Below, piece by piece: positions 19,161 to 22,100 of a DNA stretch of 32,000 nucleotides. The DNA is taken from the NCBI RefSeq assembly GCF_014651875.1, contig NZ_BMXS01000002.1:228446-260445 (forward strand), given 5' to 3'. Position 1 is the first letter of the stretch. Every line of letters begins with the position of its first letter. Source of the stretch: Litchfieldella qijiaojingensis (GTDB lineage Bacteria; Pseudomonadota; Gammaproteobacteria; Pseudomonadales; Halomonadaceae). Below the pieces are notes generated by a model that worked only from the letters and a program-made list of their open reading frames with translations, was not told the origin of the DNA and ran no database searches. The position numbers and the translations under genes were made by a program.

Positions 19161-22100
19161 CTACAGTGGCGTTCCTTTATCCCTGGCCATGGCATAGTGT
19201 TGAAAGGCCTGCTTGATATCCAGACGAAGCTGCTCGTCATTCCAGGGCTTGGTGAGAAACTTGTAGATCGCTCCCTCGTTGATAGCCTCAGTCACGGATT
19301 GGAGGTCCGTATAACCGGACAGCACGATGCGGATGGTATCGGGATAAAGATCCTTGACCCGGCTGAAGAATGCGGTGCCATTCATTTCCGGCATCCGCTG
19401 ATCGGAAAGTATGACCTGGACTTCATGCTTGGCCAGCAGCTCAAACGCATCATGAGCACGGCTGGCGGTAAGGATCCGATACCCTTCACGGCGTAACACG
19501 CGTGACAGTGCGCGAAGAATGTTCTCTTCGTCATCGAGCAGCAACAGAGTCTGGATGGACTCGTCACCGTCACGCCGCGGTAGCTTGACGCTCGGCGTTT
19601 CCTGATGCTGCTGGAGGTAATCCCTGAGCTTCTCCAAGGGTAATGGCTTGCTGAAGTAGTAGCCTTGATATGCATCGCACTGGCTTTTCCTTAGAAACGC
19701 AAACTGTGGCTCGGTCTCGACTCCCTCGGCAACGACTTGGAGCCCCAGATGGTGCACCATGGAAATGATGCCTTGAGTAATTGCCGCATCATGCTGATCA
19801 CGAATGATTTCCTTGATAAAAGTACGGTCGATCTTGATTTTATCGATGGGCAGCCTTTTCAAATATCCGAGACTGGAAAAGCCTGTACCGAAGTCATCGA
19901 TAGCCAGGCGGACACCAAGATTTTTCAACTCATGAAGCGTCTGTACGGCACGCTCTGCATTATCGAGAAGAATGGTTTCCGTAAGCTCTAACTCAAGGAA
20001 TTTGGCTTCGAGCTGAGTTCTTTCAAGGACTTGACGTACCAGATCGACGAAGTGGTCCCTTTGGAATTGCAGTGGAGAAATGTTGACGGCAACAGGAATA
20101 TCCACTAACCCTTGGTCGTAAAGTGACTTGATGTAGCGACAGGCAGTTTCCATCACCCAACGATTGAGCGAGAAAATCTGCCCAGTATCTTCTGCAATCG
20201 AGATGACACTGGCAGGTGAGATGAAACCAAGCTCGCTATGATGCCAGCGAAGTAGAGCTTCCATTCCTACCAAGTTCTGCCCATTAGCATCTACTTGAGG
20301 TTGAAAGTAAATTTCAAACCCACCGCATTCAATAGCTTTCTGCAACTCATTGCGAAGAGTGACTCGTTCACTGACTTGTTGGTTCAGGTCATTAGTGTAC
20401 CATTGGAAGTTATTCCTCCCCCGCTTCTTGGCCTTATACATTGCCAAGTCGGCTTGTTGAACCAAACCCAAGGGATTTTTCTCCTCACCATCACTAACGA
20501 CAATACCAGCACTCGCCGTGATTCGAAGCTCGGCATCACCGATCTGATAAGGGAGAGCGATATTCGAAAGCAACCTTTCAGTAACTTGCAGTGCATCCTC
20601 CTGGCGGAACAAATCAGGTAGTAAAACGACAAACTCATCTCCTCCTAGACGAGCCGCAGTATCACCAGGTCGAATCTGCTGTTTGAGCCGGTTAGCGACC
20701 TCGACGAGCACTTGATCTCCTGCCGCATGTCCCATGGAATCGTTGATGGGCTTGAATCCATCGAGATCCAACAAAATAACCGCCAGGCTTCGCTGATAGC
20801 GCTTCGCAAATTGACAACCCTGCACCAAACGGTCTTCAATGAGAGAGCGATTCGGAAGGCCCGTCAGAACATCATGACTGATATGGAAAGCAAGCTCCGC
20901 CTCAAAGCGTTTTTTCTCAGAGATATCGTTCAGCACACTAACATAATGAGAAACGACATCATCTTCGTCACGTACAGGCGTGATGTAAAGTTCATTCCAG
21001 AATGGAGATCCATCCTTGCGAAAATTTCGCAAGACCGTATAAATCTCTCTCTGCTCGTTCAGTCCCAGGCGGATCTGCTCTACACCAGGTTGGTGACGAT
21101 CACCAGATTGAAGAAAGCGGCAGTTCAATCCAACCACGTCTTCCGCCACATAACCAGTAATCCGTTCAAATGCGGGATTGACATAGATGAGAGGTATATC
21201 AGGTGCCAACGCATCGGCGATTGCTATCCCGTTATAGCTGGACTCGATGCTTCGCTTCAATAGGTGAAGCTGCTTTTCCGCTTCCTTCCTTTGACGGATG
21301 TCACGCAGTGAGAAAAGGAACATGGTTTCCCCATCCCATTCGGTCTGCGAGCGTTGGACCTCAACGATGACATGCCCTTCACCCTCCACGAAAACAGTCC
21401 ACTCAAAAAGACTATCATTGACTACAGGGAGCTCGAAGCACCTCTGCATCAACCTCTCTGTGGTAGACCAGAAGAGTGACACGGCTGCAGGGTTGGCATA
21501 ACGTACCAAACCTTCCGAGTCGATCACTAACAATGCATCACGGCCGTCACTAAGCAACTGATGGAAAGCTCTTTCCCGGCGTTTAGCCTCATTACTGGCT
21601 TTGATTTGTTCGGTAATATCATTCGCAAGTATCAAGCGAGCCGGTTGCTCATTGAAAACATAATCATGAGCAGTAATTTCTGCACTGACTTCACTTCCAT
21701 CTTTGCACTTGAGTACCCACACGCCCACTTTTGGCGTGGCGGAAGCACTGTCTATTTCTTGATAATGGACATGAAAACGCTGCTGCTCAGCAGGAGTGAG
21801 AAGGTCGGGAACCCGCATTCCCATGATCTCGTTGTAAGAATAACCCAGCAAGTTCAAGACGGCTCGATTTACCGCCAAGACAGCCAACGTCTCGCGGTGA
21901 TGAATGTACATGGGCTCTGGATTGGCTTCAAACAACAAGCGGTAGCGCTTTTCACTCTCGGCCAACACTTCAATGGAATGAGATCGCTCGACTGCATAAC
22001 GTATGCTACGGGCCAAAATCGAGTTGGTCATCTCTCTCTTGACCAAATAGTCTGCGGCACCGAGCTCGATGGCATTGATGTCGAGTTCATCTTCTTCCTG

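Follow-up and report, generated by a model that had tools for sequence, protein, structure and literature searches.

In a 32,000-nucleotide stretch of the Litchfieldella qijiaojingensis genome (contig NZ_BMXS01000002.1, positions 228,446 to 260,445; hereafter, the window), the open reading frame (ORF) at 19161..22370 on the minus strand encodes a protein of 1069 amino acids with the domain order REC-PAS-PAS-LOV-GGDEF-EAL-REC. Judged by its sequence, the third PAS domain of this protein, at 20910..21248, is a bona fide LOV domain of the glutamine-deficient class: it retains the adduct-forming Cys417 and the flavin contacts, and carries Leu480 at the active-site glutamine's position. We consider it probable that this domain is a functional blue-light sensor binding flavin mononucleotide (FMN), of a naturally glutamine-less kind, built into a multi-input enzyme of cyclic di-GMP (c-di-GMP) turnover. 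Until 2022, the active-site glutamine was thought to be an obligatory relay of LOV photoreceptors. The protein described here adds one more natural glutamine-less LOV domain, from a halophilic gammaproteobacterium and from a c-di-GMP enzyme that presumably also takes phosphorylation input. It opens no new mechanism, the Leu variant having been described since 2022 and being common; the main value lies in the recurrent loss of Gln, some 10 times among 119 orthologue representatives, in favour of Leu, Met, or Ile, with the cysteine and other contacts fixed.

LOV identity of the third PAS domain

The peptide quoted in an earlier note on this DNA, IESSYNGIAIADALAPDIPLIYVNPAFERITGYVAEDVVGLNCRFLQSGDRHQPGVEQIRLGLNEQREIYTVLRNFRKDGSPFWNELYITPVRDEDDVVSHYVSVLNDISEKK, is the exact translation of 20910..21248 (minus strand), residues 375–487 of the ORF. 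The features that the note had read from it were all recovered: the LOV motif GLNCRFLQ, with Cys417 encoded by TGC at 21122..21120; the FMN contacts N416, R418, Q421, R434, N449, and N459; and Leu480 (CTG, 20933..20931) at the position of the I-beta glutamine, on which the HMMER and BLASTP alignments agree. The domain is also the third PAS of the protein, as the AlphaFold2 model has three successive PAS folds, at residues 154–251, 279–357, and 381–482.

A phmmer search with residues 365–497 against all PDB sequences gave 161 matches. The best 60 of these, which were listed, are all LOV proteins, with E-values from 5.6e-37 to 7.8e-20. The top relatives are Pseudomonas short LOVs 7r5n (5.6e-37), 7a6p, 5luv, and 3sw1; further listed matches are the LOV-activated diguanylate cyclase 8c05 (8.3e-30), YtvA (2pr5, 2.4e-24; and 2mwg), aureochromes, phototropins, ZTL/FKF1-type proteins, and LOV histidine kinases. 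Among the matches listed, the alignment thus brings in LOV relatives only, and does not assign the NCRFLQ segment to a non-LOV PAS subfamily, an outcome that the earlier note had named as one that would speak against its reading. Pfam PAS_9 matches residues 390–485 (E = 1.4e-31). The NCBIfam models YtvA_fam (9.7e-36) and BluLightHisKinLov (2.5e-33) both score under their whole-protein cut-offs, because they cover whole proteins and the query is one domain.

The short LOVs of Pseudomonas (PpSB1-LOV, PpSB2-LOV; 7r5n, 7a6p, 5luv, 3sw1, 5j3w) have the closest solved cores among the matches listed (E from 5.6e-37 to 1e-30). They align with the query without gaps over about 120 residues, sharing the blocks IYVNPAFERxTGY, CRFLQ, and LRNxRKDGSxFWNEL. 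They are stand-alone proteins with A'alpha and J-alpha helices only, and all have Gln (IQKDV, VQKDV), whereas the query LOV is an internal module and has Leu. In the HMMER alignments, Leu480 stands opposite the Gln of IQKDV, VQKDV, and IQRDV, the query segment hyvsvlndis pairing with tyfigvqkdvs and tyyigiqrdvt. A gapless BLASTP alignment with AsLOV2 pairs YVSVLNDISEK with FIGVQLDGTEH, so that Leu480 takes the position of Q513. With a constant offset of 33, residues N416, C417, R418, Q421, R434, N449, and N459 correspond to N449, C450, R451, Q454, R467, N482, and N492, respectively, in the established AsLOV2 numbering of the flavin contacts. The six contacts other than C417 are kept in 109–120 of 121 aligned domains.

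The full-length AlphaFold2 model was built from 53 orthologues and has a mean predicted local distance difference test score (pLDDT) of 83, rising to about 90 or more across most of the LOV core. Strands 381–386, 394–397, 443–450, 456–467, and 473–482, with helices within 399–439, form the five-stranded antiparallel sheet of a PAS fold. C417 opens helix 417–421, which follows the NCRFLQ turn; L480 is part of the final beta strand, 473–482. The core is bounded by helices 359–377 and 484–498, and ends in a DIS motif, the equivalent of DIT. Among the LOV hallmarks tested here, the alignments point to a single one that is absent, the conserved active-site Gln (AsLOV2 Q513, YtvA Q123), with Leu480 instead; since 2022, this Gln has not counted as indispensable to LOV membership or activity (PMC9098866).

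Replacement of the glutamine in orthologues

A whole-protein search found 2157 proteins at E ≤ 1e-50, and the best 120 cluster representatives were analysed. These are full-length or near-full-length orthologues from Litchfieldella, Phytohalomonas, Vreelandella, Pseudomonas, Stutzerimonas, Halopseudomonas, Marinobacter, and Synechococcus elongatus. In 119 of them, position 480 is occupied by Gln (100), Leu (17), Met (1), or Ile (1), and position 417 by Cys (115), Ser (3), or Pro (1). None of the 17 Leu variants has lost the cysteine or any other flavin contact. The nearest orthologue, from L. anticariensis (80% identity), has Gln480.

In a neighbor-joining tree built from 550 columns, LOV to EAL, which holds the S. 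elongatus protein and the query group alike, the Leu sequences split over eight separate clades. By Fitch parsimony, the inferred ancestor had Gln, which was lost 10 times independently, and Cys was lost four times. Position 480 requires 10 steps, compared with a LOV median of 14; for the other residues of the flavin pocket the numbers are 0 (N459), 1 (R418, N449), 2 (N416, Q421), and 4 (C417). These counts indicate that Gln480 is only moderately constrained in the family, and the fact that only Leu, Met, and Ile replace it suggests that the pocket is still under constraint and not drifting freely. A search for co-varying residues in the 10 independent non-Gln lineages found no LOV column that consistently accompanies the Leu state, and thus no obligatory compensatory substitution.

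The four lineages that lost Cys, P0004 (Phytohalomonas tamaricis), P0009, P0088, and P0064, have NSRFLQ (three) or NPRFLH (one), and keep the Gln. By the orthologue alignment, the cysteine and the glutamine are each individually expendable.

A broader, biased sample comprised the best 150 representatives at 50% identity from 1.84 billion proteins, ranked by summed multi-domain score. Of the 115 complete domains with the strict signature (N-C-R..Q..N..N) in this sample, 72 have Gln at the corresponding position, 23 have Leu, six Ser, five Ala, and four Ile, and the remaining five have other residues. The survey for natural Leu that the earlier note had proposed thus finds it to be common, both here and among the orthologue representatives.

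The exact protein WP_189466275.1 is carried by one genome and one contig only, so Leu480 might be a sequencing or assembly error, or a private strain mutation without biological meaning. We regard this as hardly credible. Codon 480 is CTG here, CAA (Gln) in L. anticariensis, and CTC (Leu) in P. benzenivorans; the Leu codons differ, and CTG differs from the sister CAA at two positions, more than a single step, which argues against a sequencing error. Moreover, the same replacement, with different Leu codons, is found in at least eight independent orthologue lineages, and Leu recurs in the broader sample.

Signalling without the glutamine

Dietler et al. (2022, Nat Commun 13:2618; PMC9098866) showed the LOV glutamine to be generally dispensable and defined the class of LOV-deltaQ receptors, so a natural Leu in a Cys-bearing LOV-GGDEF-EAL protein belongs to a class already described. 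About 350 such natural receptors were catalogued, predominantly with Leu and Ile; hence, the query has one of the two predominant natural replacements. In YF1, signalling is supported by nearly all residues at the Gln site, except Pro, His, Trp, Tyr, and Arg. Replacement of Gln by Leu retains light responses in YF1, NmPAL, and AsLOV2, and NmPAL Q347L has a 17-fold response, above that of the wild type. In crystal structures at about 1 Å, the light-induced changes are closely similar with the Gln-to-Leu replacement, and water was proposed to relay the protonation of flavin N5 to the beta sheet when Gln is absent. As a rule, LOV domains with the Gln replaced recover more slowly in the dark and lose a bathochromic shift of about 10 nm, and responses without Gln are called "often attenuated" (all PMC9098866).

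The earlier note had held that Gln-to-Leu variants of plant LOV2 keep a photocycle but show damped signalling, and had suggested that the domain signals through a non-canonical relay. The former holds in part: attenuation is frequent, but signalling persists in YF1, NmPAL, and AsLOV2, and may exceed the wild type, as in NmPAL Q347L. The latter is reasonable but not novel, both the dispensability of Gln and the water relay having been published in 2022.

A described parallel is the Mesorhizobium loti receptor WP_140774521.1, a LOV-deltaQ protein that, like the query, keeps the LOV residues and the NCRFLQ cysteine, lacks the Gln, and has a GGDEF-EAL effector. Its LOV-GGDEF fragment is a blue-light-repressed cyclase, and is the only natural LOV-deltaQ member for which a light response was shown in that study (PMC9098866). 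The M. loti receptor has Met at the Gln site, where the query has Leu, and its LOV domain starts near residue 28 (supplementary alignment), hence it is without the REC-PAS-PAS module that precedes the LOV domain of the query.

Domain organization and conservation

The 1069-residue product is 100% identical to GGX82273.1/WP_189466275.1 of Litchfieldella (formerly Halomonas) qijiaojingensis. In the AlphaFold2 model, the N-terminal receiver (REC1, residues 8–115) is followed by a long helix, the first PAS (PAS1, 154–251), helix 253–274, a short second PAS (PAS2, 279–357), helix 359–377, the LOV domain (381–482), helix 484–498, GGDEF, helix 660–682, EAL, and the C-terminal receiver (REC2, 941–1064); the short second PAS is thus bounded by helices on both sides. 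A fold search with the full-length model returned only multi-domain PAS-GGDEF-EAL enzymes (DosP, RmcA, MorA, RbdA), and is uninformative for the LOV question.

The GGDEF motif is intact (RLGGDEF), with an RxxD I-site, RPGD, five residues upstream, and so are the EAL motifs MEALLRW, IDDFGTGFSS, KIKIDR, and AEGVETE; both catalytic domains look competent. The phospho-acceptor set of REC2 is complete (D946, D947, D990, S1018, K1041) and invariant in 53/53 orthologues.

Between L. qijiaojingensis and L. anticariensis, amino acid identity is 67% in REC1, 76% in PAS1, 68% in PAS2, 83% in LOV, 84% in GGDEF, 86% in EAL, and 94% in REC2. The proportion of nonsynonymous differences (pN) is 0.093 in the LOV domain and 0.114 in the whole protein. 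This conservation of the LOV domain between the two species supports a working domain. The ratio of nonsynonymous to synonymous rates (dN/dS) was dropped, since synonymous sites are saturated (proportion of synonymous differences, pS, 0.67–0.82) and the ratios are unusable. Pseudogenisation was considered and rejected: the query deviates at 12 columns that are at least 90% conserved, compared with 8–16 in other Halomonadaceae orthologues.

Loss of the phospho-acceptor in the N-terminal receiver

Codon 61 of the receiver (22188..22190, minus strand) encodes Gly, not the phospho-acceptor Asp, in the context LVLIGYRL, compared with LVDYRL in the family. REC1 is therefore probably a pseudo-receiver. 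In the acceptor column, Asp is found in 111 of the 116 orthologues with an N-terminal receiver, and Gly in five. All five Gly61 sequences, the query and the S. nitrititolerans/P. lopnurensis clade, are Leu480 variants, and none of the 98 Gln variants has Gly. The co-occurrence amounts to two independent events, and the chance of both falling into Leu lineages is approximately 0.14 squared, about 0.02; the association is suggestive and no more.

Two readings draw on this association. According to one, the photocycle is intact, while the relay is decoupled or strongly damped by Leu480, so that light is at most a minor input; control of the enzyme would rest mainly with REC2 phosphorylation and the remaining PAS domains, and L480 and G61 would both reflect relaxed sensory control in this lineage. 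We consider this unlikely. The frequent attenuation of responses without Gln (PMC9098866) agrees with it, as do the lability of position 480, which is far higher than that of the other flavin contacts (10 steps versus 0–4), the removal of the REC1 acceptor by G61, seen among the orthologues only in Leu variants, and the rapid evolution of REC1, PAS1, and PAS2, the fastest-evolving parts of the protein (67–76% identity). On the other hand, Gln-to-Leu replacement kept clear light responses in every system tested, with NmPAL Q347L above the wild type (PMC9098866); the replacements at position 480 are limited to Leu, Met, and Ile, which suggests constraint; and the LOV domain is well conserved, with the deviations of the whole protein at conserved columns lying within the range of the other Halomonadaceae orthologues.

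According to the other, the change of Gln to Leu is recurrent adaptive tuning, not neutral drift: lineages that give up phosphorylation control at the N-terminus would re-tune the LOV photocycle, e.g., towards slower recovery and higher sensitivity. The basis for this is the number of replacements (at least 10), their being always to Leu, Met, or Ile with the Cys kept, and the two lineages that are also without the REC1 Asp; we regard it as speculative and distinctly unlikely. If true, the family would offer natural Q/L pairs, e.g., L. anticariensis Q480 and L. qijiaojingensis L480, for testing what the glutamine is for. In any case, such close pairs make it possible to measure how the residue affects dark recovery, sensitivity, and the amplitude of the signal physiologically.

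Proposed signalling and comparison with known systems

For the reading that we prefer, a functional glutamine-less blue-light sensor, we infer the following course of events. Upon binding of the flavin, blue light would lead to an adduct of Cys417 with flavin C4a and to protonation of flavin N5. The N5-H signal would pass to the beta sheet via water, not via a Gln side chain, and from there through the DIS motif to the helical linker (residues 484–500), which would re-register and act on the GGDEF-EAL part of a presumably parallel dimer. By extension from engineered Q-to-X variants, Leu480 should slow dark recovery, with light integrated over longer times, shift the absorbance to the blue by about 10 nm, and alter, not abolish, the amplitude of the response. 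The output would be a light-dependent change in c-di-GMP hydrolysis; an increase of phosphodiesterase (PDE) activity in light is the most likely variant, because S. elongatus SL2 is a blue-light-stimulated PDE. Light would be integrated with phosphorylation of the intact REC2 by the histidine kinases of the surrounding gene cassette, which is plausible, since Rec-LOV-GGDEF enzymes use OR logic; the N-terminal receiver (G61) would no longer be phosphorylatable. Proteins of this kind are candidate slow-cycling LOV modules with PDE or diguanylate cyclase (DGC) output for optogenetic control of c-di-GMP.

The S. elongatus PCC 7942 orthologue, ABB57385.1, is 53% identical to the query over 84% of the query length and has the order REC-PAS-LOV-GGDEF-EAL. 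It is one of the two LOV-GGDEF-EAL proteins of the species, SL1 or SL2, and is believed by us to be the product of locus Synpcc7942_1355. The query shares with SL2-type proteins the LOV domain directly upstream of tandem GGDEF-EAL, orthology over the full length, and intact GGDEF and EAL motifs. The S. elongatus protein has the canonical Gln, is 929 amino acids long, and is without the C-terminal REC and one PAS, whereas the query has Leu and both these domains. Upstream of its gene lie a giant PAS/GAF kinase and a single REC, conserved partners that also occur at the loci of Pseudomonas and Marinobacter. SL2 is an FMN-binding protein with a PDE activity that increases under blue light (Cao et al. 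2010, as cited in PMC8846402, PMC10124867, PMC13001216).

MsLadC (8C05; PMC10396304, PMC12805367) resembles the query in having a LOV domain, a helical linker of the coiled-coil type, and then GGDEF, with the I-site present; it has Gln, and is without EAL, REC, and extra PAS domains. The alignment of the two (E = 2.8e-53, 289 residues, LOV and GGDEF) has a single gap, a 14-residue deletion in the linker of the query, that is, two heptads. In LadC, the coiled-coil register of the linker controls the cyclase, and homologues with short and long linkers exist (PMC10396304, PMC12805367). The two-heptad difference is consistent with a preserved coiled-coil phase.

RldC (Rec-LOV-GGDEF; Fuchs & Winkler 2026, PMC13501900) also combines a receiver and a LOV domain in one c-di-GMP enzyme, and is activated by light or phosphorylation, with OR logic. 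Unlike RldC, the query has no acceptor Asp in its N-terminal receiver, and has an intact receiver C-terminal to EAL, two more PAS domains, and EAL.

RmcA of P. aeruginosa (PA0575), a GGDEF-EAL phosphodiesterase with several PAS domains, has a LOV-like PAS that binds flavin and adjoins GGDEF; its GGDEF-EAL part is 44% identical to that of the query and was found in the fold search. It differs from the query in possessing a periplasmic sensor module and in being without REC domains. As its LOV-like PAS is implicated in phenazine/redox effects, the domain studied here might have been repurposed as a dark redox or flavin-occupancy sensor, as proposed for RmcA PASd; the earlier note had put forward a similar alternative. 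The host is non-phototrophic, some orthologues are without the Cys, and a descent of LOV receptors from redox-active flavoproteins has been argued (PMC9098866), all of which would fit. Nevertheless, we consider this reading very improbable, and nothing in the present analysis supports it. RmcA PASd is without the adduct cysteine, unlike the query, and Cys417, which a pure redox sensor does not need, is kept in 17/17 Leu variants, together with the flavin contacts, and in 115/119 orthologues. A hydrophobic Leu beside N5/O4 is not known to confer redox sensing, and the LOV domain is 83% identical between the two Litchfieldella species, compared with 67–76% for REC1, PAS1, and PAS2. Further, a redox role would leave light sensing possible.

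Several points weigh against a glutamine-less light sensor as proposed here. The host is a chemoheterotrophic halophile without an obvious need for light sensing, though LOV proteins are common in such bacteria. The four orthologue lineages that lost the Cys show that the family can drift from canonical photochemistry. The light input could be weak, since replacement of Gln by Leu attenuates signalling in some systems, and the loss of the REC1 phospho-acceptor could reflect a general loosening of sensory control. A role in light sensing is suggested by homology, and ABB57385.1 is either SL1 or SL2, of which only SL2 showed light-stimulated PDE activity. Finally, a simulation study, as cited in PMC9098866, found less water influx for Q513L.

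Genomic context

The gene for the LOV enzyme closes a cassette of five genes that lies in a low-GC (guanine + cytosine) island (Table 1). The REC-HD-GYP gene overlaps the PAS kinase gene by 4 nt. The gene for the Arf-like GTPase overlaps the histidine kinase gene by 29 nt and sits between the response regulator and the kinase, a position conserved in the Litchfieldella, Pseudomonas, Stutzerimonas, and Marinobacter clusters; a Pseudomonas homologue has a faint DO-GTPase2 match.

Table 1. Coordinates (window numbering) of the LOV enzyme gene, its domains, and the cassette genes.
Feature	Position	Strand	Basis
LOV enzyme gene, last of five co-oriented cassette genes	19161..22370	-	ORF, Pfam domains, 100% protein match, full-length AlphaFold2 model
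N-terminal receiver (aa 1-125)	21996..22370	-	Pfam Response_reg, two stretches in protein
First PAS (aa ~140-252)	21615..21953	-	Pfam PAS_8 142-192; AlphaFold2 PAS fold 154-251
Second, short PAS-like domain (aa ~265-358)	21297..21578	-	AlphaFold2 strands 279-357; weak Pfam Diguanyl_cycl_sensor 278-311
LOV domain (aa 375-487)	20910..21248	-	Translation, PDB phmmer, Pfam PAS_9, NCBIfam
Cys417 codon TGC, adduct-forming cysteine	21120..21122	-	Translation
Leu480 codon CTG, position of LOV active-site glutamine	20931..20933	-	Alignments to Pseudomonas short LOVs and AsLOV2
Helical linker, J-alpha-like (aa 484-500), LOV to GGDEF	20871..20921	-	AlphaFold2 helix 484-498; 8C05 alignment
GGDEF domain (aa 498-654)	20409..20879	-	Pfam 2.3e-47; motif inspection
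EAL domain (aa 673-909)	19644..20354	-	Pfam 6.5e-76; motif inspection
C-terminal receiver (aa 943-1051)	19218..19544	-	Pfam Response_reg
Histidine kinase (HisKA + HATPase_c), directly upstream of LOV gene	22516..23664	-	Pfam; conserved neighbour in relatives
Small Arf-like GTPase, 225 aa	23636..24313	-	Weak Pfam Arf match; conserved neighbour in relatives
REC-HD-GYP c-di-GMP phosphodiesterase, NosR family	24433..25770	-	Pfam Response_reg + HD_5; NCBIfam NF053512, 571 bits (cut-off 400)
PAS histidine kinase, first cassette gene	25767..27083	-	Pfam; NCBIfam T2SS_HK subfamily match below cut-off
Low-GC island with five-gene cassette	19100..27100	.	GC ~48-52%, flanks ~58-65%

The C-terminal REC of the LOV enzyme (19161..19562) and the receiver of the REC-HD-GYP protein share 43% identity (E = 3e-39), and the former also fits positions 1–124 of the NosR-family model (E = 8e-56). 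This similarity suggests that the two receivers are substrates of the same kinase(s). NosR was described as part of a two-component system that senses nitric oxide in Burkholderia pseudomallei (PMC12570481).

All five genes recur in L. anticariensis (locus L001, 5403..13213), with a GC content of 44–51%, compared with 55–59% around them; there, the cassette is located downstream of the RuBisCO/cbb operon and adjoins glycosyltransferase and cytochrome oxidase genes. With low GC in both Litchfieldella species and different neighbourhoods, the cassette looks horizontally acquired or mobile. A search at the borders of the low-GC island turned up no convincing direct repeats or tRNA flanking it. 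A promoter scan of the cassette gave six promoter-like sites, a number not above the 7.8 expected from shuffled sequence, and the terminator-like sites found in the cassette are all inside coding sequence.

The clusters of Pseudomonas, Stutzerimonas, and Marinobacter are larger, the additions being a single REC, a REC-MshEN-T2SSE ATPase, a PAS/GAF hybrid kinase of very large size, and, directly upstream of the LOV gene, another single REC; in S. elongatus, too, the giant kinase is followed by the REC and then by the LOV gene. We thus read the LOV enzyme as a node in a conserved module of two-component and c-di-GMP signalling, and it is fair to suppose, as the earlier note had proposed, that the output of the cassette may respond to blue light. 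The REC-MshEN-T2SSE ATPase, encoded at L002 2626..4860, L004 4315..6570, and L006 1663..3906, is not part of the Litchfieldella cassette; it belongs to the pilus or secretion ATPases, and MshEN is a c-di-GMP-binding domain. Its presence in the larger clusters hints at a pilus or secretion machine as the physiological output of the module.

On the other side, a gene for an NAD-dependent DNA-ligase-like protein (adenylation, OB, and HhH domains; 17324..19138, plus strand; GC 63–65%) is convergent with the LOV gene, whose 3' end it faces, the two stop codons being only 22 nt apart; we take its domain content to resemble that of LigB. Further along the window, at 29369..29909 (minus strand), there are three tandem tRNA-Asn(GTT) genes followed by tRNA-Met(CAT).

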